Shown here one piece after another: positions 841 to 43,212 of a stretch of DNA of 64,000 nucleotides. Source of the DNA: Octopus vulgaris. Its lineage: Eukaryota. The stretch covers positions 3,224,001-3,288,000 of the forward strand of contig OX597827.1 in the NCBI GenBank assembly GCA_951406725.2, written 5' to 3'. The notes under the pieces are model-generated. The model saw only the letters and a list, made by a program, of their open reading frames with translations, was not told the DNA's origin and did not search any database. Position numbers and translations under genes: made by a program. Each line of letters begins with the position of its first letter. Positions within the stretch are counted from its first letter, which is position 1.

Positions 841-965
841 ATTTATCGCTGACGAGGAGAAAATTCTCATGAATTAAGTCTGAAATTGGGACCGATACGA
901 TAATAACAACATTTTTTCGAAATTTCTGTCAGCTTACTTCGAGACGCATGCTTATAGTGATAAAT
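841..965 (+). ncRNA. hammerhead-like motif, probably a degenerate Penelope pLTR
   Basis: CTGACGA at 849-855, stem II GAGAAAAT/ATTTTTTC, GAAA at 919-922, GTC at 928-930. Stem I does not pair in the canonical register. Confidence 0.4.
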
Positions 966-1041
966 TATATGGTTATTGACGATTTGTCTATTTTCGGCAT
1001 ATTTGGCATTAGAAATTTTTCTTTTGCCCTTGTTTATAAGT

Positions 1042-1074
<33 letters not shown>

Positions 1075-1200
1075 CGGTGCCCCAGCATGGCCACAACTCA
1101 TTAGCTGAAACTGGAAAAATCAAAATCAAATATATATATATACACATATAGTTGAAAAAAGATTAGAGATCTATACAAATCAAACTTTTATATATAAAAG

Positions 1201-1597
1201 ATAGAAGTGGAAGTAGCAGAGAAGTAAATCTAAGACATTTCAATTTAAGAAGGAATTTAATAAAAGGATTTTAAAATTACATTAAGAAAATATTACTGGT
1301 TTTGGTGATGAATCTCATCTTATCAAATATCAGTAAAAATTTGAAGTAACAATAAATTTATCTTCTGTCTGGGGATCAAAAACAGTTTATATTCTGCCTG
1401 GGGGTCAAAATCAGTTTATCTTTTGTTTGGGGATATTTTCACTTCAAATTTTTATAAATTTTTACTGATATTTGATAAGATGAGATTCGTCATCGAAACC
1501 AGTAATATTTTCTTTATATCATTTTGAAATCTTTTTATTAAATTCCTTCTTAAATTGAAATTTCTTAGATTTACTTCTGCACTATTTCCACCTACAT
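1201..1597. repeat. foldback element: ~145-bp inverted arms around a 29-bp tandem repeat
   Basis: 1201-1347 is the near reverse complement of 1441-1597; the spacer holds TTTATCTTCTGTCTGGGGATCAAAAACAG about 2.7 times. Confidence 0.9.
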
Positions 1598-1905
1598 TAT
1601 CATCATCATCATCATCTTCATTTAGCGTCCGTTTTCCATGCTAGCATGGGTTGGACGGTTCAACTGGGGTCTGTGAAGCCGGAAGGCTTCATCAGGCCCA
1701 GTCAGATCTGGCAGTGTTTCTACGGCTGGATGCCCTTCCTAACGCCAACCACTCCGTGAGTGTAGTGGGTGCTTTTTACGTGCCACCCGCACAGGTGCCA
1801 GACAGAGCTGGCAAACGGCCACGAACTGATGGTGCTTTTACATGCCACCGGCACGGGGGCCAGGCGAGGCTGGCAACGGACACGAACAGATGGTGCTTTT
1901 ACATC
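1598..1905 (-). mobile_element. RTE LINE 3' UTR/tail fragment ending in (GAT)n
   Basis: Nearly identical to 43829-44120, which is joined to RTE coding sequence. Confidence 0.85.
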
Positions 1906-2580
1906 CATCAAATCCACTCACAAGGCTTTGGTCATCCTGAGGTTATCGTAGACGATACTTGCCTAAGATACCACGCAGTAAGACTGAACCCAGAACCATG
2001 TGGTTGGGAAGCAAACTTCTTACCACACAGGGGTTAATGAACTATACCTACTCCTCAATGCTACCCAAAATATAATCTGGTTTTAGATTAAGCAGGGTTA
2101 CTTTAGACATGACTCTCCTGGGGAGGCATCATCATCCTCATCAGCATCATTTTATGATGGCTTTCTATGTTGGCATGGATTGTATAGTCCAACAGAATGC
2201 AACAAGTCAGAAGAGCAAGTCTTGCTTGAAAGTCTCAATCATTACAGGGTTTCTATTGCTGGATAACTTTCCTAAGATCAACCACTATATGCATGATCAA
2301 AAGTTTTGTGTTTATTTCACCATGGGCCAGACATATATATGTTTAAAGCTATATTTAAAGGTTGGATGTATTTTTTATCACTAACCCTAATCAGTTTCTC
2401 AAGTAAGGGATATCTTAATTCATTAGACTACAGAGCTACAGGGAATATCAACAATATCACTGTTTTAAGCCCAGTTAGTCTCATGTATTAATTTAGAAAT
2501 GTCAAACTTTATAGATCCACATACATAAATAAATGTATGCACACACACTTGCATACATACACATACACACACATATAACC

Positions 2581-2838
2581 AAGGACAATGGAGTGAGCAA
2601 GTCCATTTATTTCATTGATTTACAATTGTTTCATCAAGCGTCAATCTCATGAGCATTGCCACATTACACAATATATGCAATCATGCATGATATTAGATGC
2701 AAATAAACACTATGCATGACACTTCATGTATCAACGGTCACATATATTGTGGCAAAATAATTTAGTAATGCTCATGAGCACTATGTTTGATGAAACAATT
2801 GTAAATCAATAAAAGAACTTGCTCGTTCCATTCTCCTT
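2581..2838. repeat. foldback element with ~75-bp inverted arms carrying a hammerhead half-motif
   Basis: 2581-2657 pairs with 2767-2838; the right arm has CTCATGAG...GAAAC-AATT-GTA followed by AATAAA. Confidence 0.8.
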
Positions 2839-3756
2839 CATTATGACTGTAGAAACACTGCAGATATTTGTGAATTTTTCAGGCAAGTGTTCGAATATAA
2901 CAAGCAATCTTCAGATTACTATCTGTCTGATGGCCTAGACTCATGGAAGAGCTTAATAGGGTAAACGCCAGGGTTAACACTTGGATAAAATTATATAGTT
3001 CTGTAATTGGTATAATGAGCAACAAAAGTACTCTGTCATTTAATAAACACAGGATTTCAATGAGAGCCGTTTGGAGCCTGAATGATAGCCTGATAATAAT
3101 ACATGGCATATTTGACTATGGTATCAATCAGAGGCATCAAATTTATAGCAGTTTACATTAAAATCTTGTGAGTACATTAAATTATATATGTAATGGGCTT
3201 CCATACAGCAGTTTTTAATAATCTAATTTCATTTACAAGGCATTGGTCAACTTGAGTGTATGGTAGAAGATATGTGTCCAAGCTGGATTGCAGCAAAACA
3301 GACCATAGAAGTGGATAAGTTTTGAAGCAAACTCGTATATATATAGCCATATATGTTCCTACATATCATAGATATTATATATAAATAAATATAGTACATA
3401 AATATTATAAGAATGCATGCCTCGGTGAATGAAACATAGATGTCTACTATCATATTGAACACATTCATGTATGCTTGAATGTGGGAAGATCTTTTGTTGC
3501 AGAACTAGCCTCAGAGGATGGCACAATGGGCGATCCAACACCTTTCTGGGTTACAAATAACTTCATCAGACTGTAGGATGCATGTATTTCTCTGTTGTTG
3601 CACTTTGTCAGTTAAGGACATTGAATCAGTCTTTGATTGTTCTCTGAGAATGGTTGTCCATATAAATAAAGACAGCAAGTGGTACGTTTACTGATGTGTA
3701 CACAGTTTGATCAACCTGCAATTAAATAGAGGTGTATGCATATGTATGTGTCTGCA

Positions 3757-3802
<46 letters not shown>

Positions 3803-5030
3803 AACACATAGATATGTACAGATACGTATATATATATATATTCACACACACACATATATACATAAATGTGTGCGTGCATTTGTGTGTGTGTGTGTAGATG
3901 TGTGAGCATGCATGTGTGTTTCTTCTTTTTTCTATTTGTATTTTCTTCAAAAAGTTACTTTGCTGGAAGTCAGGACATCGTTGTCATTTCCTAGCCAATA
4001 ATTTGTTAGCTGCCATCTGCTTTCAAAGATATATGGAATAAAAAAATTTCTGCCTTGAAAACAAGTAAGATTTGCTTAGGAAAGGCATCTGACTGTAAGT
4101 TAAAGCCTCACAAATATAGCCTTCTAACACATGCTAGCATGGAAAAACGAAATCAAATATACACCATGTGTGTGTGTATGTATCTATGTATGTATGTATA
4201 TATATATATATTATGCAAACACAAACAGGTACGGACATACACACATACATGCAATAGATAACAGGATTGCTTAAAACTGGCATAAAGCGTATAATATGAA
4301 TACATTTATATATATATATATGCAGAGAAAGAGAGAGAGAGAAAGACTGAGTGAGACCCCACATTTATACGTATATATTTGTGCATGTGTACATGTGTGT
4401 GTGAATGTATACACTCACACACACACACACATATATATATATATGCACACACATGCACATATATATAAATATATTTGTGAGTGTGTGTATGTGTGAGTGT
4501 GTGTGCATGTGTACATACATATAAAGATATGTAAATGGAAAAAAAAATGAAATGAAAGAAGAGATGCAAATTAGAGAAAAATGAAACAAAAAACTGATCC
4601 AATAATGGAAAGAAAACAAAATCTTGAGAATTATCAAAAAAAATCAAAAAAAGAGATTGCAAAGAAGAAATAACGACAGAGAATTTCCCAAAATAAGATT
4701 TAGAGAATTAAAACAAAAAGAATTGCTGCAAAACATGAATATTTAGAAAAAAAAGAAAGAAAAGAGGAAAAAATCTGTTCAAAGAAAAATATTATTACAA
4801 AATAGCAGAATAAAAGTAATTAAAGAGAACATTTTATTTTATTTCATATTCCATTAAAAAAGATAATGTCTTGGTGAAAATGAATGTAATGGCAGGGTGA
4901 CATGATAAGCAAAACCAAGAGGAAATTAAACGACAGCTGTTGTGGATGAAATCTAGAAATTCATGACATTATGATCTATGGATTTTGCATCAAGTCTACT
5001 ACCAACAAGGAGGTTTCTATGCAGTCGTTC

Positions 5031-5198
5031 AGCATAGGAGTGGCTGTGTGGTAAGTAGCTTGCTTACCAACCACTTGGTTCCATGTTCAGTCCCACTGCG
5101 TGGCACCTTGTGCAAGTGTCTTCTACAATAGCCTCGGGTCGACCAAAGCGATGTGAGTGGATTTGGTAGACGTATATATGTGTATATATATATATATC

Positions 5199-5235
<37 letters not shown>

Positions 5236-5430
5236 CTGTGTTTGTTCCCCCAATATCGCTTGACAACCGATGCTGGTGTGTTTACGTCCCCGTAACTTAG
5301 CAGTTCGGCAAAAGAGACCAATAGAATAAGTATTAGGCTTACAAAGAATAAGTCCTGGGGTCGATTTGCTCAACTAAAGGCGGTGCTCCAGCATGGCCGC
5401 AGTCAAATGACTGAAACAATAAAAAAAAAA
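5031..5430 (+). mobile_element. SINE family A, near full length (tRNA head, CORE-like segment, internal microsatellite, tail)
   Basis: A box TGGCTGTGTGG, B box GTTCAGTCCC, CCTTGTGCAAGTGTCTTC, internal (TA)/(TG)n, tail CAGCATGGCCGCAGTCAAATGACTGAAACAA. About 20 full or partial copies in the window. Confidence 0.9.
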
Positions 5431-5577
5431 TACAAGGAATAATAATAATAATAATAATAATCCTTTCTACAAAAGGCACAAGGCCTGGAATTTGAGGGAA
5501 GAGGGCTAGTTGATTACATCGACACCAGTGCATAACTGGTACTTCACTGTTTTTGTTGTGTAATGTTGGTCATTTTG

Positions 5578-6220
5578 CTTTCTAATAAGCAAGAATTTGT
5601 CAGAAAGCCTCCAGGAAAATGAAATGACCCACGTTACATGTCACAGACAGTGAAGTTAGTGGGTGAGAGTTTGATGCTTTGGGAATACATAATAAGTAAT
5701 GGTTCAGGAAAGTTGGTTAAAATTTATGGTAATTTGACTAGTGCCAAATACATCCAGTTGAAGAAAGGACAATTTGATACCAGATTTAGATGAAGGTGAG
5801 ATCTTTCAGCCTGACAGGGTTCAATGCCACAGATCAGGTGCAACACAACAGTGTCTGGCTGGTGAAGGAGCTACCGATTGAAAGATTGGCCAGCTCAGAG
5901 CCCTGACTTAAATATCATTCAGCAAATTTGGACAGAACTAAAGAGAAGAGTTTGTCAGAAGAATCCACACAATCTTGAAGAGTTGCAGGATCTCAGCCAC
6001 AGAGAATAGCATCTCATACCTGTGAAGATGGTGAAGGAATTGTACGCATCTCTTCCCAGGTACATTGAAGCAATTATTCAAGCTAAGGGAAGCCACATAA
6101 AATATTAACAATGTACAGTAACTTCTTGAAATGAACATTATGGAATAAACTTTCATTTTAGACATTTTTCTGTTTTAAAACACTGTATCTTGATTGGTTG
6201 CAAACTTTTGCACAGCCATT
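5578..6220 (+). mobile_element. Tc1-like transposon relic: transposase catalytic C-terminus plus 3' TIR remnant
   Basis: Manual translation gives TVKLVGESLMLW, EIFQPD, KDWPAQSPDLNIIQQIWTELKRRV (from 5881) and LYASLPRYIEAIIQAKGSHIKY*, with frameshifts and stops; end GGTTGCAAACTTTTGCACAGC. Confidence 0.9.
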
Positions 6221-6269
6221 TTTGGAGGTCGTTTCAGATCTTCCCCTTTCATTCAGAACCCCTACTACA

Positions 6270-6903
6270 AAATATAATGATTAGTCAACAAGGTGAAACA
6301 TGACTTGTGTAGTAGTACCATAGTCAACTACTACAAAGGTAAAGGTGATGCATTTGATACAAATAATTACAGAGGTATCAAGTTGTTGGATCAGGTAATG
6401 AAGGTCACAGAGAGGGTCATAGCCCAACTAATTAGGGAGAGAGTCAGCCTAGATGAGATGCAGTTTGGGTTCATGCCAAAGAAAAGCATCACTGATGCTA
6501 TATTTCTGGTAAGACAGCTGCAGGAGAAATACCTAGCCAAAGATAAACCTCTGTACCTGGAGAAAGCCTTTGACAGGGTCCCCCAATCCCTTATCTGATG
6601 GTCAATGCAGAAACTAGGGATAAATGAATGTGAGAGCTGTATAAGCCATGAACAGGGATGCTGTCAGTAAGGTGAGGGGTTGGCAACGAGTACAGTGAAG
6701 AATTCTGGGTAGGGGTAGGGGTCCACCAAGGATCAGTCCTCAGCCCCCTCTTATTCATCATAGTCCTCCAGGCAATAACAGAGGAATTTCAAGACAGGAT
6801 GCCCCTAGGAGCTTCTCTGTGCTGATGACCTTGCCCTAATTGCTGAGTCACTATCAGAACTAGAGGAGAAGTTTCAGGTGTAGAAGCAAAGATTAGAATC
6901 AAA
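6270..6903 (+). mobile_element. RTE-clade LINE reverse transcriptase fragment, disrupted
   Basis: YKGKGD..NYRGIKLL, QFGFMP, LEKAFDRVP, VGVHQGSVLSPLLF and LLCADDLAL RT motifs with stops and frameshifts. Confidence 0.93.
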
Positions 6904-7032
6904 CAAGTAGCACTGGGATCGAAGTAATCAACTTAACCCCTCCCTCAAAATTGCTGGGTTTGTGCCAAAGTTTGAAATTAATATATATATATATATCTGT
7001 AAAATAATATGTGACAATTATTCAATAGCCAA

Positions 7033-7093
7033 GATGAAACCCTGAGTTTCAGATGCCGAGGTGGAAATCCACACCACCATCTCTTTGGTTATC
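7033..7093 (-). ncRNA. decayed type I hammerhead motif in a short (TA)n-flanked insert (~6995-7110)
   Basis: Minus strand: GAUAA-CCAAAGA(for CUGAAGA)-GAUG..CAUC-U-GAAAC-UCAGG-GUU-UCAUC. Confidence 0.55.
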
Positions 7094-9654
7094 TAGCCAT
7101 CTGAACCATATATATATATATATATATATATATATGCTTTAAAATACAGCATTAAGCAAGTACAGAGTGAAGTAACAATTACTGAATAACAAAGGAAGCC
7201 AAGTCATGTAATTGATTCCATTAGTTTATGACTGTTTCTTTTATAGGAAGCAGCACACTTTTGAGTTGAGTGCTCGAGCAACATCTTTCAGTCCCTAAAA
7301 GTCATTAAAATCAAATTATGTTTATTTCAGCATTTAAGTACATAGAAATTTGCTTGTGTAATTCATGCTTCCTTATCATATATCTTATATATATATAAAA
7401 TATATATATATCTTTTATCTTTATCTTTTTACTTATTTAAGTCATTAGACTGTGGTCATACTGAGGCACATTGCCTCCTTGAACAAGACACTCCACTTCA
7501 TTTTACTTCAGTCTACTTTGCTACAAAATAATGCAATGCACCCTCAATCTACAATTGTCATATCCTGCTCCACTTTGATATATCACACTCACATGTCGTG
7601 ATAAAACAAAAACAAAAGTCTTAACAAATTGGTGGACCGCAAAATTCTAATTGGCAGTCTTTCACATTCCATTATTTCTGGCAGAAGCACTTTCCATTCA
7701 TTCAGTTAAAGAATGTATAATTAAGTTATTGTTAATTTACTTACAGTAGTGATCATAAAAATTGTAATCAAATTATAATTATTAGCTGAAACACCTCACA
7801 CCAAATAATTTTCTGTAAGTCACTAAATAATATTTACGCATTTAATTCTCCGTTCGTATAATTTTTCTGATATTATGTCTAATTTCCCTTTGCATCATTT
7901 TTATTTGTCTAATAGTACTCACTTGAAATTTAGATTAATAGCAAGCACACAAAAAAAACAGTGTTAGAATTTATGAAGAAATCAGGTATTACATTGGCTT
8001 AATTTAGCTGCATAAAAATCCTCAGTTTATCAGATATGTATATCTTGAGCTTTCGTTATCTTGCATGACAGTAAACTGGATCACATATCTAGTATGTAGT
8101 GGAGGAAATCATACAGCAAGGCTTATTGTAGTTCAGACATGTGATTGTATAACTTTTTATTTGCCCTACGTTACTTTACTATCAATATATTTATGTTTCA
8201 TTTTGTACATTTTAGTAGTAATAACCTATATAAACACGTAGTTACAGATGTAAAGGGATGGGAAATGATATATTTTCCCTCTCATTCATCATATGATCTA
8301 TGATAACATGAACAGTGATCTCAGCAAAAGAATTAATCATCGGAAATATTCAACAGATTTCATGCTACGGCCTTCACCATGTACTATAACAGTCTCCTAT
8401 AATGGTTATGGGCTGTTTTTTTTAACATTGTACACAACAATCAAGTTCTGTTGTTGAAGAAATATGGGACAAGTTTATATTTAATACAATTCACGTAAGT
8501 AAATTAAAATCACTTTTCTTCTTTGAAAAACACCCTACAAATATGAAAGGTCATAATGTGACTGGGGCTGGATTAAACTTGGAATTTTAAGAAATGTTCA
8601 TATTGATACATCTGTAGAAAGCACAAACAGGAAACACTATTGCACAATGTTAAAAAAAATGCTATCTTGTTGTGAATTAAATTTAGTTTTGTGTAGTAGA
8701 AATCTTCAATAATAAAGATCCCTAAAAATCACATTTTGATAAAAATATATTAAAATTAGAATTTTGAAGAATTATCACATTATAAAGTTTAATAATTGCT
8801 TCTTTTTTTAAAAATAAAAGTTACATACCCTCAACTAATTGATAAGCAGCTTTCTTCAATATAGTATAAATATGTTGAGAAAAAGACAAAACTAACTTAA
8901 TGATTAATATTATTTTAATTATTTCAGCAAGTATAGAAGATAACGTTGTATCACTGAGCTAATATTGTCTTTTCGTCACCATATGAATATTTTAAATTAG
9001 AATTTTGATATTTATTACATTAAATATAGTAACACTAGCTCAACTATTGTTTTTCATGCAGATGACACATTCAAGTAATTAACCCACAATAACTTAATTC
9101 TTTTTTGTTTTTCATAAAAGTTGGTATAGTCATGACAGAAATTTATCAGTTCTTATTTCCGTGATTGGAAGACTTTGCTCACATTCTCTCCAGCAATATA
9201 ATTATTCATAACTCCATAAAACTTTATCAAATAAATATTCTGATGAGATCCAGCTATCCTTCAGTGTTCCAGTTTATCAGAGCATTAATTTTTATGCATT
9301 CACTATTAAAGAATTCAACTGGGTATATGCTTAAGCCTTCAGCATCAAAAGAAAATCAATACCACCAACTTGTTGTTTGTGACACGAGGATCCAAGACAT
9401 TAACCTCTAAATAGCCATCAGACAATATGACTTCATAACAATGCACTTGAATTATATTGGAATGGAACTTGGTTAGGACAGGACAGATGAATATAAATTA
9501 TATGTGAAGTAAAACAAACAAGAGCAACCATTTACAGACTGTCATCATTGATTGTTATTTGCTCAATATTTACAAACGAAGCCTCAGGAAGACAAGAATT
9601 TATTGGCCCATCTTGTCAACATCTACAGATATATTTTCAAGTTGTAAACACTGT

Positions 9655-10240
9655 AATGGCTGTAATCATTAAGAAGCTCACTTTGCAACCATGTGGTGCC
9701 AGGTTCAGTCCTGCAGCACAGCACCTTGGGCTAGTGCTTTTTTATTGTTAGGTCAACCACTGCCTTGTGAGTGAATTTTGTAGGCAGAAGTTTTGTGGAA
9801 GCCCATCGTAGGTGTGTGGTGTGTGTGTGTATCATTGCACTTGTGCTTGTCTCTCCCCGTTAACACCCCGGACGAAATGCGAAGCCGTATTTCGTCTGCC
9901 GTTACGTTCTGAGTTCAAATCCGCCAAGGTCGACTTTGCCTTTCATCCTTTCGGGGTCGATAAATTGAGTACCAGTTACGCACTGGGGTCGATGTAATTG
10001 ACTTTATCCGTTTGTCTGTCCTTGTTTGTCTCCTCTGTGTTTAGCCCTTGTGGGTAGTAAAGAAAGAGGTGTTGGTTTGTTTACAACCTGGTAACTTAGT
10101 AGTTCTGAAAAAGGAGCTGTTAGAATAAGTTCAGATATGTATAAAACAAGTATGTGGGTGAGAGCAATTTATAGAACTAAACCCTTTAAGACAGTGTTCC
10201 AGCACAGCTGCAGCTCAATGACTGAATCAAATAAAAGACA
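9655..10240 (+). mobile_element. SINE A interrupted by a SINE B copy (~9858-10068)
   Basis: A head and tail flank a well-preserved B body GTCGACTTTGCCTTTCATCCTTTCGGGGTCGATAAATTGAGTACCAG. Confidence 0.85.
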
Positions 10241-10394
10241 TGATACACTTGTTTGTAATCTGTGGTCTATCTAGTTATCAGCAGCAGCTATGCGTCTATT
10301 TATTTAATATATAGAGAAAGTAGGGTCTAGCAAGAAGACAGACAAAATCAACTGACCCATCATTTTAACACCAATAGATGAATCTTCAAAGTGT

Positions 10395-10710
10395 ATAATG
10401 AAGAAGGGATGACCCAGGCTGTGGTAAAAAGGAAACTGCTTCATGAGATAAGGGCCAAGCAATTGAGATTTCTTGGTCATACGATGACGGAAGAGGGCCT
10501 GGAGAATTTAGCAATGATCAGAAAAATTGAAATGTAAAGAAACAAAGGAAGAGAGATGATATGGATGTCAAGCTTGGTGAACTCTTTGGAAGAAAAAGCA
10601 TTAAACAGCAAGAAGTGGAACTGTTGCAGAAAACAAAGAACAGAGAATTGTAGCAGGACATGATTGCCTATGTCCAACACTCTGGACACGGCACTTAAGA
10701 TGAAGATGCA
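10395..10710 (+). mobile_element. RTE (BovB-like) ORF C-terminus relic
   Basis: Translates EIRAKQLRFLGHTMTEEGLENLAM..KIE..GR..W...REL*QDMIAYVQHSGHGT*. Confidence 0.75.
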
Positions 10711-10960: not shown

Positions 10961-11004
<44 letters not shown>

Positions 11005-11732: not shown

Positions 11733-11763
<31 letters not shown>

Positions 11764-12017: not shown

Positions 12018-12049
<32 letters not shown>

Positions 12050-12054
12050 ACATG

Positions 12055-12627: not shown

Positions 12628-12668
<41 letters not shown>

Positions 12669-12736
12669 ACACAAATATTGAACGGTGAAAATGAGTGCTT
12701 GACACTGCATTGGTAGATAAAGATTCTTTATATGTC

Positions 12737-12947
12737 TATTGAGTCTACCGTTGGTTATATGTTAAGGAATAGCTCCACAATTACCAAGCCTCTCACATGC
12801 AATATAGGTATTCATCTCCATTTTGGATTAAAACAATCCAAAATTTAATTCTATATGAAGACAAACACCAACATTTCATGTGATAGGGTTAATAATTGTT
12901 AAGGTATTCCTTAACAAGAAACCAATGGTAGCCTTAATACACAAATA

Positions 12948-12950
<3 letters not shown>
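12737..12950 (+). mobile_element. decayed hammerhead motif with an inverted partial copy upstream (pLTR-like foldback)
   Basis: 12885-12934: TTAATAA(for CTGATGA)-TTGTTAAGG/CCTTAACAA-GAAAC-CAATG-GTA, then AATAAA; 12737-12771 is an inverted copy of 12905-12939; followed by (TA)n. Confidence 0.6.
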
Positions 12951-12990
<40 letters not shown>

Positions 12991-13031: not shown

Positions 13032-13215
13032 TAATTGTTATATATTAATATGGCAATCTTATAGATATAAGACTAAAAGTTGTCGCTGATTAGCTCCATG
13101 AGGCCATCACCTTAAGATAGCTATAAGACTGCCATATTAATATGGCGATAACAATTAATTTCCAGTAACGCTGCCGTAATCTCTTTTAGAGAGACTTAGT
13201 AATTTTAATATTTTT
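13032..13215. repeat. (TA)n-flanked foldback fragment, same family as 22772-23225
   Basis: 13032-13120 is reverse-similar to 23128-23225; 13150-13205 is similar to 22870-22930. Confidence 0.7.
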
Positions 13216-14504: not shown

Positions 14505-14550
14505 GAATATCTGAGGAAAGAATATTATTCCGAAATATCATATTAGACTA
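14505..14550 (+). ncRNA. hammerhead-like motif in a (TA)n-embedded insert (~14485-14630)
   Basis: CTGAGGA at 14511, GAAT/ATTC stem II, CGAAA, quasi-palindromic AATAT-C-ATATT stem III; stem I is poor. Confidence 0.5.
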
Positions 14551-14758: not shown

Positions 14759-15233
14759 AATATCGTCATATGTGTATATATATGTAATGGGAGAAAGCGC
14801 TAATGATCTAAGTGATATGATATATATATAAAAAATGTAATATACAAATACATATCTGTAAATATAAACCATCCGATCTTCTGATTACCTCATTTCTTCT
14901 TATATATAATACCTGTACATCATCTCCAAACCTTTCTATACATATATGTATATATATATATTTATATATATATATATATATTGCTTTATATATATCATTT
15001 AATATATACAGGATTTAAATGTAAGCTGCTATAAGTTTCATACTCTGCTGGTACAATAGTAAGACAAGTTTGTATTGTGTGTCATGTACTACCATGCAAT
15101 CTTTCAGGCTACACCAGCAAAATTGCTGGCCTTATACTAAAATCAGAATTGTTTTTCTTGGTGTTTCAAGTTTGATGTGTGTGAGTGTGTGTGCGTGAGT
15201 GTACATATATATATATATATATATACATATATT

Positions 15234-22771: not shown

Positions 22772-22953
22772 AATAAAATTATTAAGTTATAGATATTTCA
22801 TTATTTCTAATTCTCTCTAAAAGAGACAGTGGTACGGCAGTGGTACTGTATATTAATAGTTATTGCCAAGCTATTAATATCCAGTACCACTGCCATAGTC
22901 TCCTTTAGAGAGAATTAGAAATAATGAAATATCTATAACTTAATAATTTTATT
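22772..22953. repeat. near-perfect ~85-bp hairpin (palindrome)
   Basis: AATAAAATTATTAAGTTATAGATATTTCATTATTTCTAATTCTCTCTAAA is mirrored exactly by the right arm; loop about 10 nt. Confidence 0.95.
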
Positions 22954-32528: not shown

Positions 32529-32560
<32 letters not shown>

Positions 32561-33454
32561 TTATATAATGTTGTTTAATAGGTATCCTTCAAAAGACAAG
32601 ATGGTGATTGTAGCTGGAATACCTTCGATCACATGTTTGCTTAATAAGAGCTGATCTAGGATAAACAACAACATCACTGTCATCATCATCATCATCTTCC
32701 TTGTCATCACTGCCAACATAATTGTCATCATTACCATCCACACCATTACCATCATCAGTGTCATTGTCATTATCTTTAACACAATTATCAAACATCATCC
32801 TCATCATCACCATATTCATGGTATTATCATTATCATCATAATCTTTAACATCATCCCCTTCATCATTGTCATCATCAACACCATCATTATAACCATCATC
32901 GTCACCATAATCATCATCAACATTCTCATCATCATCATCATCATCTCAAACATCATTGCTACTATCATCCTTATTGTCATCATTGACATCTTTAAAATCA
33001 TAATTATTATCTTCATCATCATCATCATCATAAACAGCATTATCATCACCATCACTATCACCATGACCATAATCCTTGTCATCACCATCATTATCACCAT
33101 GACAATAATCATCATTATTGTCATTGCATTCATCATTTCCAATATCATTATCATCATTTTCATCTTTGTCATCATCATCAACACTACCACCCCCAGAACC
33201 ATCATCATCATCATCATTACTATCAAGTTAGGTGATATAATTATCAGGAGAGTAAATCCTTCTCCTTTGTTACCTCTGCTCTTTTACCTGCTGCACAAGA
33301 ATTACTGCTATAGCATCACAAAACTTTTGTTTCATCATGTATTGACAAATTAGAAGATGATTTAGAACTGAATTCCAGATTTTTACCAAAGATAATTTGA
33401 AACATTCTGTTCCTTAAATCAACAAAGGAGCCGCTAACATTATTGTAATGGTCC

Positions 33455-33650
33455 AAGGCAGTGAGCAGGCAGGGTCGTAAGCACGCCTAGTGAAATGCTT
33501 AGTGTTATTTTGTCTGTCTTCATGTTCTGAGTTCAAATGCCGCTGGGATCAACTTTGCCTTTCATTCTTTCGGGGTCAATAAATTAAGTACCAGTTACAC
33601 ATTGGTGTCAATCTAATCGACTAGTCCCCTCCTACAAAATTTCAGCCCTT
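33455..33650 (+). mobile_element. SINE family B
   Basis: AAGGCAGTGAGCAGGCAG head and CTTTGCCTTTCATTCTTTCGGGGTCAATAAATTAAGTACCAG core. Confidence 0.85.
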
Positions 33651-33694
33651 TTATAAAGGTACAGTGTAATCTCTAGACACACTTACTTGCACAT

Positions 33695-34455
33695 ATTTCA
33701 GTCATTCAACAGCAATCATGCCAGGGCACTGCCTTAAAGGGTTTAGTCAAAAAAATCTACCCCAGTACTTATTATTTTAAGCCTGGTACTTTATTTATGA
33801 GTCTCTTTTTGCTGAACCACTAAGTTACAGGGATGCAAAAAACCAACACCGGTTATCAAATAGTAAGTGGGATGGGACAAACACAAACACACACACACAC
33901 ACATATACTCATAGATGTATATACATATATACAATAAGCTTCTTTCAGATTCTGTCTATCAAATCCATTCACAAGGCTTTGGTCAACCTGGGACTGTAAT
34001 AGAATATACTTGCCCCAGAATCATGGTGGGGTTGGGAAGAAAATTACTTACTACACAAGTCACACCTGAGTCTATATGTTAAGATAACCAAAAAGAAAGT
34101 GGTTGTGTAGTAAGAAGCTTGCTTCCCAACCACATGGATCTGAGTTCAGTTCCACTACATGGCACTTTGGGCTGGTGTCTTCTACTGTTGCTTTGTACTT
34201 ACCAAAACCTTGTGAGTGGCTTTGGTAGATGGAAACTGTATGTCTGTATGTGTTTTTGTCTGTGTTTGTCCCCCCACCACCTCTTGACAATTGGTGTTAG
34301 TGTGTAACTTAGCAATTCATAAAAGAGAACTATACAATAAGTACTCGGCTATAAAATAAACAAGTCTTGGGGTCAATTTGTTCAATCAAATCTCTTCAGG
34401 GTAGTTTCCCAGATGGCCACAGTCAAATGACTGAAACAAGTAAAAGATAAAAGAT
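33695..34455. mobile_element. two SINE A copies head-to-head
   Basis: 33695-34070 on minus and 34098-34455 on plus, about 30 bp apart. Confidence 0.82.
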
Positions 34456-34765
34456 AATAGATGGTTCTGGCTGGAAAGTTCTAGAGCATAGCTACAGAGT
34501 TATGCATCATCAGAATTGACCTAGGGTTAAACAACAACAACAACAACGGTCGATCTATTTGCTGTGATAAACTGTGAACTTTAACTTCCTTGCCACATGG
34601 TACCTACTTCCTGCTACTAAGACTGAGCTATTGATAGTTAATGTCTTTGCAGGTGAGTTCACTGAAATATGTCAGTTACAGTATCAGGCTGATGTGGATT
34701 CCTGGTGATTCTGAATAGAAAGAAAATCTCTCTCTCTCACTCTCTCTCTCTTTCTTTCTCTTTCA

Positions 34766-34807
<42 letters not shown>

Positions 34808-35294
34808 TGCATGCATGCATATACATACAAGCATACATACAAACATTTATATAAATATATATTATATAGATAGATAGATAGGTAGGTAGGTAGGTAGGTA
34901 GGTAGGTAGGTAGACAGACAGACAGATAGATAGGTAGGTAGGTAGGTAGGTAGGTAGATAGGTAGATAGGTAGATAGATAGATATATGCATATATTTAAC
35001 ACATGTATAGATACAATAAACACATAAACTTATATATATATATATATACATACATATACACATGTATATATAGTTGTGTGTGTGTATGCCTGTTGTATGT
35101 GTAGATGTGTTATATACACATTTTATCATCATAAATAGGAAATGGTGTTTGCATAAACGTTATTATATCCACAATAATATCATGAACAAAGGAGAAGAGA
35201 AGCAGATACCTTTGATGGAGTAAATACTGAACACACAGTATGTAGTGTTTTTGCACCTATCCTTACCTAAGGTCATGAATGTTGTGTAATAAAC

Positions 35295-35920
35295 AAAAGA
35301 GTATGATCAAGAACAGAAGTGGCTGAAATAGGGTTCCTCTGAAGACTCTCTAGAGCAGTGGTTTTCTACCAGGGTTCCGCGGAACCTTAGGGTTCTGCCA
35401 GTACAGTCCAGGGGTTACGCAAGAAGTTACAAAACTGCTAAAATCGGCAGTAATTTTTAAGTCTCCTGTGCAGATATGTGTGCATAAGACTATTAAATTA
35501 TTGCACAGGGGTTCCTCGAGCCAGTGGAATGTTTCCTTGGGGTTCCGCTCCAGCAAAAAGTTTGAAAAGCACTGCTCTAGAGCAATGCCACTTGACAGAG
35601 TGCGTAGCTTGGAGATCAGAAAGCCTCTCCTGGTTCAGTTGCTACTGGTCTGCATTGAGAGATCACAGCTCCAGTTCTACAGATTTGTAATGAGAATATC
35701 AGAGGAAAGAATTTTAAGATGGATTGTTGAAGCCAGGCCAACCAACAAGAAACCTAGGGGTAGACCGAGAACAAAACGGTTGGATAATAGTCACGGTTTC
35801 AGTGGATTACACCTGAGAATTCAGCCAGAAAGCCTACTAATGGTTGATTCAAAGAGGACCCAATGAAGGAGGTGCTTGAGGATTCTAATCTCACAACTCT
35901 CCCAGGAATAGTAGGCAGAG
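35295..35920 (+). mobile_element. RTE (Expander/Rex3-like) ORF C-terminus relic, split by a MITE
   Basis: AEIGFL*RLS|RAMPLDRVRSLEIR..IERSQL..RPTNKKPRGRPRT; the frame is continuous once the MITE and one TSD are removed. Confidence 0.82.
35356..35574. mobile_element. hAT/Charlie-type MITE, 219 bp
   Basis: TIRs CAGTGGTTTTCTACC / GTTTGAAAAGCACTG; perfect 8-bp TSD CTCTAGAG at 35348-35355 and 35575-35582. Confidence 0.95.
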
Positions 35921-36185
35921 AAGATAGATTTGTGAATGGATGGATAGTGTTATAGTTTCAACTTAAAGTAGTTCCTTACTAACTTTTTGATGACCCCTGT
36001 CCTTGAACAATCCCCAGATAGGGGTAGCTAGCGAAACTGATATATCTTCTGATTGGTGTTTATCAACATCCTTTGTTGATTTCTGGTTTGATTTGCACAA
36101 AAGTCTGTGGACCATTGTCTTGTATACAAGACAACCAGAAGTCAACAATAGGTGCAGTCATGGTAGCTCATAGAAAATATATGTA

Positions 36186-36418
36186 GGTGATGAGCTGGCA
36201 GAAATGTCAGCACACCAGGTGAAATGCTTAGTGGTATTTCATCTGTCTTTACGTTCTGAGTTCAAATTCTACCGAAGTCGACTTTGCCTTTCATCTTTTC
36301 GGGATTGATAAATAAAGTACCAGTCATGCAATGGGGTCGATGTAATCGACTTAATCCCTTTGTCTGTCCTTGTTTGTCCTCTCTGTGTTTAGCCCCTTGT
36401 GGGCAATAAAGAAATAAG
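36186..36418 (+). mobile_element. SINE family B, full length with TSD
   Basis: Direct repeat AGAAAATATATGTAGG at 36172-36187 and 36417-36432. Confidence 0.92.
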
Positions 36419-36705
36419 AAAATATATGTAGGCATGGCTGTCTGGTTAAGAAGCTTGCTTCCTAGCCATGTGCTCTGGAGTTCAGTCCCATCACACAGCA
36501 CCTCGAGCAAGTATCTGCTTCTGTAGCCCTTAGCCAACCAAAGTTTTGTAAAACTAAAAGAAGCCTATTGAGAGTGTGTGTGGGTGTGTGTGCTATTGGC
36601 TGGACATCATATGATAGTCGTAAACGATCATCATTGTCCTACAAGGGAAAGTGAGCACCACAGAAATGGTAAATGGCTGACAACTTAAGAAAAAAAAATA
36701 ATATC

Positions 36706-37135
36706 CATCATCATCATCATCATCATCGTTTAACGTCCGTTCTCCATGCTAGCATGGGTTGGACGGTTCGACCGGGGATCTGGGAAGCCAGAAGGCTGCA
36801 CCAGGCTCCAGTCTTATCTGGCAGTGTTTCTACAGCTGGATGCCCTTCCTAATGCCAACCACTCCGTGAGTGTAGTGGGTGCTTTTTATGTGCCACCTGC
36901 ACAGGTGCCAGGCGAGGCTGGCAATGGCCACGGTCGGATTGGTGTATTTTATGTGCCACCGGCACGGAAGCCAGACGAGGCGGTGCTGGCATCGACCACG
37001 AGTCGGATGGTGTTTTTTTACGTACCACCAGACCAGGGATCCTGGCTGGTTCAATTCGATTTCGATTTCGCTTGCCCCAACATGTCTTCGCAAGCAAGGG
37101 GGTTGGCATGGGTGCCTGTCGTACGGTCAGATTGG
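36706..37135 (-). mobile_element. RTE LINE 3' UTR/tail
   Basis: (CAT)n-CGTTTAACGTCCG...GGATGCCCTTCCTAATGCCAACC plus internal repeats. Confidence 0.88.
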
Positions 37136-37139
37136 TGTA

Positions 37140-37826
37140 TTTTACGGCAATATAATAATAATATTCAAAGTGGTTTATACGATTGGAAATGTAATTTCAA
37201 AGTGTTCATGGTGTCACAGAGAGGATCTGGTCAAAGGCATTTCAATTATAAAAAAGGAGGAAAAAATATTTCAAAATAAAGTGAGAAATACAAAAATAAT
37301 CATTATTTTGCATCTTTCTGTTAGTTTTATTTCATTTTGAAAAAATAAAAATTTATTTTATGGTTTATTATTTTTTATATTTTGAATTATATATATATAT
37401 AGGGTCACCAAAATCCTCTAAGTGCTTAGGACCACTATGGGTCTTAAATTGGCCATGACCTTATGTAATGTACTCCTAGATACAGTATACCTAAATGGTT
37501 TATGGCACAAAAGAAATCACTTTAATCTTGCAGAAATAATATTTGAAGTGGTCTATATCATCGGAAATATAATTTCAAAGTGTTCATGGTGTCACAGCAA
37601 GGATCTGATCAAAAACTTTGCAATTTAGAAAAGGAGAAAACTTCCCAGATATAAAAAAAGTGGAAGTAAACAAAAATAAACATTATTTTCTATTTTGATT
37701 GTTAATTTTGATTTATTTTGAAAAAATAAAAGTTTATTTCATTGTTTATATTTTGAATTACATATACATGAGAGCACGAAAATCATTTACGTGCTTAGGG
37801 CCCTTTTGGATCTTATTCCACCCATG
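37140..37826 (+). repeat. diverged tandem pair (~330-370 bp) resembling hAT 3' ends
   Basis: Shared TAATTTCAAAGTGTTCATGGTGTCACAG; both units end GTGCTTAGG...TCTTA..CCATG; DLIKNFAI-like peptide. Confidence 0.65.
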
Positions 37827-38506
37827 GAAACAGGTGATTATTAACAACAGGAAGGGTACTCAGCCATAGAAAATCTTCTTCAAGAAATTCTGACTGACCG
37901 TTTCAAGCATGGAAAAATGGACATTATATGTCACACCTATGTGGAAAAATTTCTATTAACAGAATTGTTGGTTTAATTTTGGTTTTAAATGATGTATTTT
38001 CAAATTAATTTTTGTCAAATTACTTTGACTTTAATATATCATTTTTAAGCCCGTTTTTCACTCAAATCGTGTTACTCTTTTATTTGTTTGTTTCATTGAA
38101 TGTCAAATTTCTATGCAAATGTGATTTAGTGTATCCATCCATAAAAGTCCTGCTTTAATATCTATCTGTCACTGACCCTTACTGGTTTTTCAGGTAAGGG
38201 ATTTTTTTTTTACTCCTGAGGAACTGAAAAGCAGAAATGACAGATGATTTTTTTTGACCGGAAATGTTAAACTTCACTAATTGCAGCTCAGTCACAAACT
38301 ATGATGCCAGAGTCAGCACCTGTACACATAGCTTAGCACAAATAATATGCCTTTTATATTTTGCTTGTTTCAGTCATTGGACTGTGACCAAGCTGGGTAC
38401 ATCAGCATTTGAAATTCAGTTTTCATGCTATCATCAGTGGGTGGACAGTTTAGCAGAATCTACTGAATTTTAAGGCAACATCAAGTTTGATGGGCTTCTG
38501 CACACC

Positions 38507-38921
38507 TTATTTCTTTACTGCCTACAAGGGGCCACACACAGAGGGGACAAACAAGAACAGACAAACAGATTAAGTTGGTTATATCGACCCCATTGTGTAA
38601 CTGGTACTTATTTAATCAAACCCAAAAGGATGAAAGCAAAGTCGACCTCAGAAGAATTTGAACTTAGAATGTAGCAGCAGACAAAATACCTATTTCTTTA
38701 CTACCCACAAGGGGCTAAACAAAGAGGGGACAAACAAGGACAGACAAATGGATTAAGTCGATTACATCGACCCCAATGCGTAACTGGTACTTAATTTATC
38801 GACCCCGAAAAGGATGAAAGGCAAAGTCGACCTCGGCGGAATTTGAACTCAGAACGTAATGGTAGACGAAATACGGCTTTGCATTTCTCCCGGCGTGCTA
38901 ACATTTCTGCCAGCTTGCCAT
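38507..38921 (-). mobile_element. SINE family B with duplicated body, nested in a minus-strand SINE A-like copy
   Basis: One head and two bodies; TSD CTT(C/T)TGCACACCTT at 38495-38508 and 38922-38935. Confidence 0.88.
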
Positions 38922-40714
38922 CTTTTGCACACCTTCTGTCTACCAACTTCACTCAGCCAAAGCAGAAGACATTTGCCCAAGGTGCTGTGCATTGTGCTAG
39001 AATTTAAAACCACGTGATTACATAGTGAGCTTCTTAACCACACAGCCACATGAGTGTATCTATTTTCATTTCCCTTTACTTATAACATTTCAAGATCCAT
39101 AAAAAGCAATCGCTTGTCCAGCATATAACATGTTGAACAACATTGCTCTGTATACTTAACATTCAAATAATTTAACATCAGAAAATAAAATATTTTATTC
39201 TATTTTATTTTAAGTCGCAACCTTTGGTGGCAACAAATATACACTCAATTGATATATTAAGTGAACAGAGTAAAACAGAGGTATATAATGAGAGAGCGTG
39301 TGGGTGTGGGTGGACGATTTGATATAACAAATAAAGTGAAAGTGGTGGGGATGGTGAGGGTGGTGATGATGGTAACAGTGGTGGTTGTGATAGTTGTCAT
39401 CATGGTCTTGGTGGTAATGGTGGTGGCAGTCGTCATCAAAGTGATGGTGGTGGTGGTGGTGGTTACTGTGGTAGTAGAGGTGGTAATGGTAGGAGTCATA
39501 ATGGTCGTAGTGGTGGTGGTCATCAGTGTGGTCATGGCGGGAGTGGTAGTGGTAGTGGTGCTCGTTGTTATCATTGTGATAGTGGAGATGGCGTTAATGG
39601 TGATGATAATCATTGTCAGCATCATAGTTGTTATGGAGGTGGAAGTGGTGTTGGTGGTGCTTATGGTCATGGTGGTGGTGGTGGTGGTGGAAGTAGTGGT
39701 GATACTGATGATGCACAACACAATGATTTTTTAAAATCAATGACACCAGAAGATGTGTCTTCACTGTGTTTTAAAAGCTCTGCATCTTCGCATGTGTGTA
39801 TATGTGCATTTATCTCTGCATGCACACACACATGCACAAGTGTCTGTGTGTGTGTGTGTGTGTATGTGTGAATGTATGTGCCTGTGCACATGCGCATGCC
39901 ACAAGGTAATTGTACAGCAGAAGTGGATCAGAAATATATTAAGTTCAAATTGACATTGTTATATGAAGCTATGGAAGGGAAGATTTCAGTCAGCTATAGT
40001 CAAGGGGAGAAGGAAAAAAATTGAGTAAATAAAACCTTCTAAATTCTAATTTTTGTTGTTGCTTCTTCCCATTGTGTTGAGAGCAAGAGTAAACGTTGAA
40101 ATACATTAGGTATCAACTCTTTATCTTTCTATTCCCTTAACAGTGCTCAGCACATGCTAAGTGAGGAAACTTGATATTTTTGTATTCCCCTTGGGAGGAG
40201 CTTGTTAGTTGATCCCTCTAGATTTGTATCCTTATCATTCTTGGTGTCTTTGATTAACGCTTACACTCAATACACCACAGTGAATAATAAAAAGCTATGA
40301 GGTATGTTTTTTTTTTTCCTTTTATTCTCCCTCAGGATTGTTCACAGACAAACCTATTAGGTTTCTGTTCATATTTTTATATTCGTTATATTTAACAACA
40401 AGGAACATCTGATAAGGAAGAAATCAGAAACCATTACTATTGTTGTTGTTATTGTTAGGAGCAGGCATAGTTGTGTGGTTGAGAAGGTGGCTTTCCAACA
40501 ATGTGGTCTTGAGTTCGGTACCACAGTGTAGCACCTTGTGCTAGTGTCTTCTGCAGTAGCCCCAGATCAACGAAAGCTTTGTGAGTGTATTTGGTAGATG
40601 GAAGCAGAAAGAAACCTGTCTGGTATGTATATGAATATACAAAATGTGACCGCGTGTGTACTGCTGACAATTTTTTTCTCCGTCTTCCCTTCCTTGGATC
40701 TTTCCTTTTCCTAT

Positions 40715-40749
40715 GTTTCTGACGAAGAGCTCCACTCGAAACGTTAAAT
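40715..40749 (+). ncRNA. minimal type I hammerhead ribozyme (Penelope-pLTR type) in a ~210-bp insert (40640-40850)
   Basis: GUUU-CUGACGA-A-GAG/CUC-GAAA-CGUU-AAAU: intact core, palindromic ACGU stem III, GUU cleavage triplet, stem I GUUU/AAAU. Confidence 0.8.
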
Positions 40750-40847
40750 CCTCCTTCTTTCTTTCTTTTCCTGAGCATCTAATAACACTATACCTGTTCA
40801 ACCTCCACACGCTGTTGTGTTTTCTCTTTGTGTTTTCATGTTTGGAT

Positions 40848-40851
<4 letters not shown>

Positions 40852-40895
<44 letters not shown>

Positions 40896-40912
40896 CATAT
40901 ATATATATATAC

Positions 40913-40986
<74 letters not shown>

Positions 40987-41014
40987 ATACATATACATAT
41001 ATATATACATATAC

Positions 41015-41057
<43 letters not shown>

Positions 41058-41090
41058 TGTGTATATGAGTGTGTGTGTGTGTGTGTGTGG
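40852..41090. repeat. long (TA)n/(TACATA)n microsatellite followed by (TG)n
   Basis: Direct reading. Confidence 0.95.
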
Positions 41091-41139
41091 AGTGGGGTGC
41101 AGTGGAATAGTAGACTGATAAAGAAAGTAGTGTTTGTAT

Positions 41140-42590
41140 GTGAAAGATTTTCAGAAGCCATAAAAACTACAGATACACAGGAAACTGATTTCTTCAAATG
41201 TCCTGGAGGCTCTCTAGAAGTAGTAGATAATTTCTGTTACCTAGGTGACCTAATTAGCAGTAGAGTGTACCAGAAGTGTAACTGCTAGAATAAGAAGAAT
41301 AACACGGAGAAAATTCAGAGAACCTCTGTTGGCAACAAAAAGTCTCTTTCTCCAAGTGAAAGGAAGATTGTATGATGCGTGTATACAAACAGCAATGCTA
41401 AATGGTAGTGAAATGTGATACCTGGAAGCAGAGAACATGTGAAGACTAGAGGGGGGTGGTGAAGGTCATATTCTCCACTGGATGTACAATGTCAGAGTAC
41501 ATGTTTGACAGAGCGGAAGTATATTATGAAAAAGTTCAGCATAAGGGGAGTTAGATGCAGTGTGCAAGAGAAAAGACTGCACTGGTTTGGTCATGTGATG
41601 TGTATGGATGAGGACAATTACATAAGAAAGTGTCAATCCACTTAAAGTGGATGGAACTTGTGGAAGAAGGTGACCTCCCAGGAAGACATGAGACAAAGTA
41701 CTAAAGGCTGATCTCAAAATGCTGAGTTTTACAAAGATGACAAAGGGCTGAGATATCCAATGCCTTGTTGTACTCAAGAAGACCCACCCACCACAGGAGA
41801 ATTGATATCCTAAGGCCACCTTGGTAATGATTGACCATGAGGGGCTCTCCCCCACCCACACTTCATCCCCAAACACCCATCACTTCCCTTATCACCTGAA
41901 AGCAGAATAGAAACATACAACATTCTCTGGCTTTCTCAGTTACTTTTCCTCTGCCCCAGTTACCTTTCTTCTCTCACCTGTTTCCACCAATCACCCCCTC
42001 CTTCCTCTGCCTTCTCTTCTCTCCCTTTGCTGCTCTCTGACATCAACACCTTGCTTACCTATTATCACCCTCAATGCTCTCACATATCTAACTCAACCTC
42101 CACCTCCAAGCCTCTATTATACTTCTTTCCATCACTTGCTAAAGTCACCGCAACTAACCCACTCACCCATTCTCACCACCCCTGATGTTCCTCGGTGATG
42201 GGGGCATATCCAAACACATCTCTGACATTATCTCTTTCACTATCACTCATTTTATCTTACACCCCAACTCACTCGCCATTGTTTTCCAAATGCAGTATTC
42301 CTGTATCTATTCTACAGCAAGACACCTATATCTGTCCTTTCTTTACCTTAAATGTCTCAACTGGTACAAAGCCATACTCCCTAAATACTACTCCTCTTAT
42401 CTCAGTTGAGGGACTTTTGTCATTCAAGGTACTTGACAACCTTGTTGGTGCTGGTACCATGTAAAAAGCACCCTGTATTCTTTGATTGGCATAGACATCA
42501 TGCCAAAGCAGACAATGGAAACCAGTGTGGTTCATGGCTTTACCAGCTCCTTTCAAATCGTCCAACCCAGATATTAAATGATGATGATTG
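41140..42590 (+). mobile_element. old RTE LINE 3' part: disrupted ORF end plus long 3' UTR and (GAT)n tail
   Basis: [21 protein letters not shown] and EKRLHWFGHVMCMD with many stops; tail CGTCCAACCC..ATGATGATG. Confidence 0.85.
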
Positions 42591-42619
42591 TGTGTGTGTG
42601 TGTGTGTGTGTGTATTGAC

Positions 42620-43212
42620 AATATTAAAAATAAGGATTTCTCCGAAGTAGCAATAGCATTACCTTCAATTCTATAACCATATACCACCTTTTAAGACCAA
42701 CACATGTTTCAATTGCACCAATTAATAATCATTGAAATTGCAACCCAACTATAAAACTGTGCAGTCTCTTCAGGGTCTAAATTTGAGATCCCTCGGTATG
42801 GCCATTTAATGATCTTCTATTCTAAAATCTGAGTTGCATCATTTTGAGCGGTCCCCTAAGTCAGACACAAACAATCTCTATTTCAAGTTCTCATTGGATA
42901 ATCATTTTCAGTCTGTCATTTCAAAAGCTTGTATAGTTTAAATTATAATTATTCATTTACACTTGGCAAATGTGAATTTCTTTATGTGCAAACATCTCAA
43001 TGCTTGTTCCTGTCTAGAATTTATTACATTAGCCTTGGATGTGAAAGTCCTGTAAAATTCTTCTAAACAGAGGTCACATCTATTGGTTCCAGGTCTGTAT
43101 GGTTTTACAGATTAATTCCCATTTAATTGTATAGTGCTTGTTACTGTCCTTAAAAGACCAGATTAATTTGCAAAGAACCATTTGGAACTTTATTTTTGTC
43201 TTTGAATGAACT
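42620..43212 (-). mobile_element. Penelope-like element 3' fragment: endonuclease C-terminus plus pLTR
   Basis: Manual translation with two frameshifts: SSFKDKNK / LCKLIWSFKDSNKHYTIKWELI / KPYRPGTNRCDLCLEE..VINSRQE..RCLHIKKF..*, stop at 42955-42953, hammerhead ~175 nt downstream. Confidence 0.82.
42694..42778 (-). ncRNA. type I hammerhead ribozyme with intact core
   Basis: AGACC-CUGAAGA-GACUGCAC..GUGCAAUU-GAAAC-AUGU-GUU-GGUCU: 5-bp stem I, 8-position stem II with one mismatch, short stem III, GUU triplet. Confidence 0.85.

Follow-up and report, generated by a model that had tools for sequence, protein, structure and literature searches.

The DNA analyzed here is a 64,000-nucleotide stretch of the Octopus vulgaris genome (contig OX597827.1, positions 3,224,001 to 3,288,000, hereafter the window), an AT-rich sequence of animal type whose GC content ranges between 0.31 and 0.48, and which is dense in microsatellites, with 382 rows of Tandem Repeats Finder (TRF) output and 60 runs of at least five TA units. 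Scattered within it are short elements carrying motifs of the hammerhead ribozyme, and it is these motifs, and their relationship to Penelope-like elements (PLEs), that we address. A preliminary description of the same DNA had listed seven hammerhead-shaped sites, at 849, 2770, 12885, 14511 and 40715 on the plus strand, and at 7033 and 42694 on the minus strand. Four of them, 849+, 14511+, 40719+ and 42773-, possess an intact core, a fifth (12889) is decayed, the site at 2770 failed and that at 7033 is unproven; an intact motif at 1472+ had been missed. Two of the listed positions are best restated, in that 40715 is the start of stem I of a motif whose core lies at 40719, and 42694 is the low end of the minus-strand motif 42691-42781, whose core is at 42773.

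By an intact type I core we mean a CUGANGA box (or its U3-A8 variant), a GAAA box and UH, together with three helices and an open stem I, an arrangement found at 849, 1472, 14511, 40719 and 42773. The 849 motif (843-903, plus strand) has a C3-G8 core, a 6-bp stem I, a stem II closed by a G-U pair, a 4-bp stem III and A17, and the 42773 motif (42691-42781, minus strand) combines a long stem II with a 3-bp near-palindromic stem III and U17. Two others on the plus strand are of the minimal kind. The motif at 14511 (14506-14544), which sits within an insert of approximately 150 bp flanked by TA-rich tracts, shows an extra base after A9, a palindromic 4-nt stem III and C17, and its first stem II pairs are damaged; that at 40719 (40715-40749) shows the extra base after A9, the G10.1-C11.1 pair, a palindromic stem III and U17. 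The trio of features typical of minimal hammerhead ribozymes (extra base after A9, G10.1-C11.1 and palindromic stem III) is therefore complete at 40719, and represented by the extra base and the palindrome at 14511, with the 10.1-11.1 pair being G-C at 1472 and G-U at 849 and 42773. The fifth motif (1467-1509, plus strand) carries the U3-A8 variant core at 1472 and occupies the right arm of an inverted repeat (1207-1591), in which it faces a head-to-head twin (1289-1331, minus strand) that retains core I intact and is damaged in both its stem II and its GAAA box. The two arms flank a 29-bp tandem repeat (1357-1434).

The second head-to-head pair is found at 12714-12962, an inverted repeat with 72% identity between arms, whose right arm contains a U3-A8 hammerhead (12884-12935, plus strand, core at 12889) with a 9-bp stem II, a 4-bp stem III and a changed G5, and whose other arm contains a twin (12714-12800, minus strand) decayed at other positions. 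The core reads TTAATAA at 12889 and TTGGTAA in the twin, each being one transition away from the U3-A8 core, at different positions, and the twin supplies the core and stem I bases that 12889 lacks. When each base was allowed to come from either repeat copy, a full hammerhead was obtained for two of ten self-inverted pairs, those of 1472 and 12889, whereas the 441 other repeat pairs, with 139 kb of aligned columns in all, gave none. Because this either-copy parse, and only this parse, completes the type I core at 12889, we count the site, on its sequence, as a decayed hammerhead. The suggestion that these ribozymes decayed unevenly after insertion is borne out by the arms of both pairs, which degenerated differently.

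No type I core was found at 7033 or at 2770. The former belongs to a 110-bp insert (6998-7108, minus strand) flanked by two (TA)n runs and located within or next to a fragment that we take to be from an RTE-like long interspersed nuclear element (LINE). It folds into a three-way junction (z -2.38, with 1 of 200 shuffles as good) and has a GAAA box. Its core position, however, reads CCAAAGA (two changes), stem II is shifted by one base and no descriptor parses it; it is possible that this is a decayed hammerhead. The 2770 site lies in an old inverted repeat (2575-2844, 69% arm identity) and is not a hammerhead as it stands: we rejected it because both arms read CTCATGA, so that G5 is C, because stem I is absent (fold z +0.36), and because no either-copy parse exists.

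How often such motifs would arise by chance was assessed with three descriptors. A strict type I descriptor, fixed before any tuning and controlled with 60 local dinucleotide shuffles, recovered two motifs (849+ and 40719+) versus a mean of 0.067 per shuffle and a maximum of 1. A looser one, allowing mismatched or longer stems and the U3-A8 variant, and written after the sites had been inspected and the variant read of, recovered five motifs with no mismatch (42773-, 849+, 1472+, 14511+ and 40719+) versus 0.325 per shuffle and a maximum of 3 in 200 shuffles, so that motif density is not equal to that of dinucleotide-shuffled sequence, as it would be had the preliminary description been mistaken on this point. 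With one core mismatch, nine motifs were seen versus 4.87 in shuffles (maximum 15), which is no clear enrichment. One such motif, at 37270, falls in a direct duplication of about 290 bp (37157-37446 and 37535-37815, 76% identity) and is probably due to chance. In a third, relaxed scan, which permits up to three core changes and was run against 150 shuffles, the same five motifs ranked at the top (five seen versus 0.39 expected at a score of at least 18), there was no excess over shuffles below a score of 14, and 2773, 7033 and 12889 did not parse as single copies. The scores of 849 and 42773, the latter the highest of all, were reached in none of these shuffles, and that of 1472 is expected 0.007 times per window; taken singly, 14511 and 40719 have scores that chance would be expected to reach about 0.25 times per window. 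The stems and flanks of the sites had been described as lacking similarity to each other, and this proved correct, given that the best pairwise blastn match among eight elements had an E value of 0.02 over 17 nt.

A link to PLE proteins is provided by the 42773 motif. Next to it, at 42956-43256 on the minus strand, lies the broken C-terminal half of a Penelope-like GIY-YIG endonuclease, with a frame change near 43105, stop codons upstream, and the residues CxxC, E, N and CxH. The segment 42956-43111 encodes 52 residues and its stop codon is approximately 180 nt 5' of the motif, on the same strand; a hammerhead in sense orientation 3' of a GIY-YIG frame was found for 42773 only. A quick homologue search with the 52-residue remnant, weak by design, returned nothing, and an exhaustive protein search returned 17 relatives (P0001-P0017, E values 1.8e-7 to 8.7e-4). 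Three of these 17 also align, by tblastn, to a second frame at 43101-43256, which indicates that the remnant is frameshifted. None of the 17 matched elsewhere in the window, and the proposed link between hammerhead families and a reverse transcriptase (RT) or GIY-YIG open reading frame (ORF) thus stands for the 42773 element and finds no such match for the others. Among 12 relatives searched against Pfam none scored above the cut-off, the nearest being a weak GIY-YIG match on P0013 (E 0.047), and a cluster look-up of six gave no protein names. In a comparison by eye with Figure S7 of Craig et al. (PMC8557442), the pattern of the remnant (LSK-IW-LK, W-I, CxxC, E, N, CxH) agreed with the rows for Hydra, whereas those for Penelope/Poseidon, Nematis and Neptune did not match it, and the element at 42615-43256 displays, as judged from its residues, the C-terminal signature of a Hydra-clade PLE endonuclease.

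The motif at 40719 could be studied at the family level. It is part of a high-copy repeat of about 213 bp (40640-40852, plus strand), bordered at its 3' end by a long (TA)n tract (40852-41067). This repeat is present, at least in part, in 20 of 24 listed public runs (10 studies, four organisms), with no RNA run listed among those that carry it. When contigs of four of these runs were aligned to the repeat at 80% likeness, between 3,037 and 11,753 contigs per run aligned in all four. No variant reaching at least 15% was seen in either core box or at position 17, and two variants improve the ribozyme: A40734G (84-94% of depth) completes the 4-bp stem II, and T40749C (44-72% of depth) makes a stem I end pair G-C. 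Because these family variants restore pairing, the copy in the window has decayed from a better ribozyme. Most of the family, the one family examined at this level, retains core and stems, so the majority sequence does not lack the CUGANGA/GAAA core, an outcome that would have spoken against the preliminary description. Depth runs on into the TA run, with TA-rich loose ends behind 40858-40859 in two runs.

As for the surroundings of the motifs, the preliminary description had placed five of the seven sites in or beside (TA)n. This holds at a distance of 150 nt, within which 5/7 named sites have a run of at least five TA units, as opposed to 13% of random intervals over the whole window and 17% over the span (P 0.0006-0.002); at 50 nt the count is only 3/7. 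Three of the five intact motifs lie within 150 nt of such a run (P about 0.02). The association is stronger when only the 3' side of the ribozyme strand is considered: within 150 nt it is seen for five of the seven real or likely motifs, namely the seven named sites minus 2770 and plus 1472, versus 7.3% one-sided (P 4e-5), and for 3/5 intact motifs (P 0.004). All these P values are only indicative, because the sites were hand-picked. Examples are the (TA)15 at 1044-1073, 140 nt downstream of the 849 motif, the (TA)n 20 nt downstream of 12889, and the TA tracts that flank both sides of 7033 (13 and 31 nt away) and of 14511 (42 and 125 nt away). The motif at 1472 does not fit the pattern, the nearest run being 325 nt away.

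Taken together, it is highly probable that we are dealing, in the real motifs, with type I hammerheads at what are likely the 3' ends of several unrelated PLE families, which were left behind as short truncated or head-to-head insertions, mostly at (TA)n, and then decayed. The proposed existence of several distinct PLE- or retrozyme-like families on microsatellites is hence upheld as far as the unrelated PLE-type ends and the (TA)n bias go, and given up with regard to retrozymes, none of these elements being a tandem retrozyme. In such a scenario, a PLE transcript would bear a hammerhead 3' of the RT-endonuclease frame, an order seen here in the 42773 element only. An autonomous copy would provide the GIY-YIG endonuclease that likely nicks (TA)n, and the 3' end of the RNA would be where reverse transcription begins, which would account for the position of (TA)n on the 3' side of the ribozyme strand. 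Early termination could leave stubs of 110-640 bp that retain the hammerhead, an inverted truncated copy from the same event might generate the head-to-head pairs seen here, and neutral decay would follow. The inverted, 5'-truncated arrangement occurs in the window as the pairs at 1207-1591 and 12714-12962, and self-BLAST of the window found no direct pair of pseudo-long terminal repeats (pLTRs). Given their short or palindromic stem III, cleavage is predicted only for dimers in tandem source copies, and since minimal motifs cleaved only as dimers in published assays, the lone copies found here are probably inactive.

Several observations weigh against this interpretation. The sites were picked by hand in a window with 60 runs of at least five TA units, and both the looser and the relaxed descriptors were tuned after the sites had been seen. 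For most of the isolated motifs the minimum-free-energy structure is not a hammerhead: single-strand folding regained the shape for 7033 and, in part, for 849, and for no other. In the case of minimal motifs, the hammerhead is not expected to be the most stable fold. Family-level data cover one family (40640-40852), and a protein link one of the seven real or likely motifs. The very element with the Hydra-type endonuclease ends beside (CA)n, with the nearest 3'-side run of at least five TA units 1,638 nt from the 42773 motif, so that insertion into (TA)n, which is a preference of the Hydra clade and not a strict criterion for it, is not seen for element 42615-43256. Lastly, none of 78 metagenome loci with the same type of motif has at least five TA units within 200 nt.

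It could be argued that AT-rich DNA with inverted repeats, such as foldbacks resembling miniature inverted-repeat transposable elements (MITEs), gives rise to motifs of this shape by chance, with the (TA)n link reflecting nothing else than microsatellite density. This is what we conclude for 2770 and possibly for 7033, and it would agree with the lack of enrichment of one-mismatch motifs, with the unremarkable scores of 14511 and 40719 when taken singly, and with an Rfam search (E up to 5) that had no hammerhead among the best 150 of 179 matches, these being microRNA and small Cajal body-specific RNA matches driven by microsatellites. For the motifs as a whole we consider it very improbable, because the count of intact motifs exceeds that of shuffled sequence, the variants of the 40640-40852 family restore stems, a PLE protein remnant accompanies 42773, and (TA)n is polarized to the 3' side; for 40719 and 42773 chance is already refuted. 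A different objection is that (TA)n is no target at all, having grown after insertion from AT-rich 3' tails, or having been carried as an RNA tail. A tail would explain the 3'-side polarity equally well, and growth would not be surprising in a genome so rich in microsatellites. We nonetheless deem it unlikely, as both 7033 and 14511 have TA on either side, which is expected of insertion into an existing run, and (TA)n is listed as the insertion preference of 26 of 27 Hydra families in File S1 of PMC8557442.

A further alternative concerns how the copies multiply. Some families, chiefly 40640-40852, might be non-autonomous elements of fixed length, akin to short interspersed nuclear elements (SINEs) or solo retrozymes, that amplify themselves with PLE enzymes, and not random PLE truncations. 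Such a view, which refines the PLE-end interpretation and does not exclude it, is a possibility that we take seriously even if we lean to the other side. In its favor, each of the four runs shows a several-fold loss of depth at about 40640, and the loose ends before 40640 are varied and AT-rich with an agreement of 0.48-0.50 (among the loose ends listed, 24 of 521), which fits varied flanks and not a shared upstream ORF; four of those before 40635, a small set from the same 24 of 521, are (TA)n. A recent preprint (bioRxiv 10.64898/2026.07.22.740005) moreover describes monomers of PLE-derived retrozymes that occur dispersed. Against it, depth at the 5' end is approximately 100-fold lower than over the ribozyme, which would also fit 5' truncation or poor alignment to a diverged copy, no aligned contig in the four runs covers the element from end to end, the window shows no tandem copies, and the picture of the loose ends comes from 24 of 521 rows. 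Still more tentatively, the 40640-40852 repeat might be a monomeric, SINE-like hammerhead passenger of fixed length, dependent on a (TA)n-targeting PLE and massively amplified across related species, in a genome that would harbor about 10^5 hammerheads, a number extrapolated from one window (five intact motifs of five unrelated families in 64 kb, and two U3-A8 pairs).

This arrangement is already in print. That hammerheads occur in truncated or head-to-head PLE ends, that many families coexist in a genome, and that (TA)n is preferred have been published by Cervera and De la Pena in 2014 and by Craig et al. in 2021. The available text of the former (PMC4209133) reports that metazoan genomes contain thousands of variable minimal hammerheads each, belonging to many families; most occur singly, they are ascribed to truncated PLEs, and they do not cleave as monomers. 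It further gives opposite-strand pairs 100-700 bp apart and a U3-A8 variant, the latter for Schistosoma. The motifs found here share with them the type I topology, the short or palindromic stem III, the extra base after A9 (14511 and 40719), the many divergent families of mostly single dispersed motifs, the opposite-strand pairs and the U3-A8 core. They differ, as far as that text allows comparison, in that the window has no pLTR-ORF-pLTR unit, that stem II carries long inserts, and stem III is a real one of 3-4 bp, at 849 and 42773, and that U3-A8 is here found in both head-to-head pairs of an octopus rather than in Schistosoma.

In the accessible portions of Craig et al. (PMC8557442), inverted truncated copies are described, the Hydra clade carries canonical hammerheads, and of 27 Hydra families listed, 26 prefer (TA)n, among them the Octopus bimaculoides family Hydra-1_Obim. 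With that clade our elements have in common the CxxC...E...N...CxH endonuclease C-terminus, the sense hammerhead 3' of the ORF, a short-looped stem III of 3-4 bp, frequent A17 or U17, and the (TA)n preference. The stem III listed for Hydra-1_oBim is identical to that of 12889, and, by eye, the style of stem III at 7033 resembles Hydra-clade entries in File S2. The 42773 element departs from Hydra-1_Obim in being broken and truncated, in its hammerhead stems and in its (CA)n 3' flank, and the RT region typical of the clade (RWK, DKT and a CxCX5C linker) is absent from the truncated copy at 42615-43256. The likeness to the Hydra clade is that of the 42773 element, the other sites not being assignable to a clade. 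Naiad PLEs share the (TA)n preference, the head-to-head truncated copies and the occurrence of cephalopod remnants; in the same source, however, they lack canonical hammerheads and have an N-terminal endonuclease, and are thus ruled out by a C-terminal endonuclease remnant followed by a hammerhead. Non-LTR retrozymes (LTR, long terminal repeat), which according to the bioRxiv preprint derive from PLE ends and occur also as solo monomers, are likewise short (150-450 bp), protein-less elements with a type I hammerhead, and resemble the present elements in these respects. As defined in the consulted part of Cervera and De la Pena 2020 (PMC7229834), however, retrozymes are head-to-tail tandem repeats with a hammerhead in each unit, and we rejected a tandem retrozyme for every site, self-BLAST having found no direct second copy in the window. 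Penelope is listed among the expanded coleoid repeats in PMC8967140, the available text of which does not mention hammerheads. Our search, which left out most subscription papers and Repbase/Dfam entries, found no publication cataloguing these particular families.

The 78 metagenome loci mentioned above mostly represent one other family with unrelated flanks. They have no flank in common with the window, no PLE-type ORF by motif screen, and no match to P0001-P0017. The absence of this match, together with that of (TA)n, implies that the motif type alone indicates neither TA targeting nor membership of the Hydra clade. Position 17 is C in 70 loci, U in 6 and A in 2, and an opposite-strand partner is present in 4/78, within 250 nt in three. 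In L010, L011, L013, L022 and L036 two related minimal hammerheads lie on opposite strands 13-250 nt apart (about 2.1 kb in L036), L011 and L022 being seemingly the same place in two assemblies, and in L032 two lie in direct orientation 867 nt apart.

The rest of the window is populated by LINE fragments and SINE-like repeats, with up to 19 overlapping self-matches each by self-BLAST. The broken RT fragment at 6281-6905, presumably of an RTE-type LINE, is followed by another short repeat at about 6910-6980 and then by the 7033 insert. A broken 3' half of what we take to be an R4/Dong-like LINE (47700-48866) includes a restriction-like endonuclease motif and a CCHC-like knuckle, and the translations at 44426-44791 (minus strand) and 41466-41879 presumably represent RTE-like LINE 3' ends. 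A 79-bp repeat has two copies (3115-3193 and 14986-15060, 78% identity), the second adjoining (TA)n. Two foldback elements, at 13032-13203, immediately 3' of a (TA)n run, and at 22772-22953, have arm identities of 72% and 88% and are 78-84% identical to each other. The either-copy test on their inverted repeats (13032-13157 and 22772-22953) yielded no hammerhead parse, and they are possibly hammerhead-less PLE ends or MITEs.

The mechanistic novelty of these findings is small, the arrangement being already in print. From an animal genome rich in microsatellites they add probably uncatalogued families, two head-to-head pairs in which the U3-A8 core occurs naturally, and a short family of very high abundance. 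The latter offers a convenient test case to ask whether PLE hammerheads remain under selection in non-autonomous copies and what part they play in retrotransposition. If the 40640-40852 repeat were indeed a passenger of a (TA)n-targeting PLE, the abundant (TA)n of this genome would represent a self-renewing landing pad for hammerhead elements.

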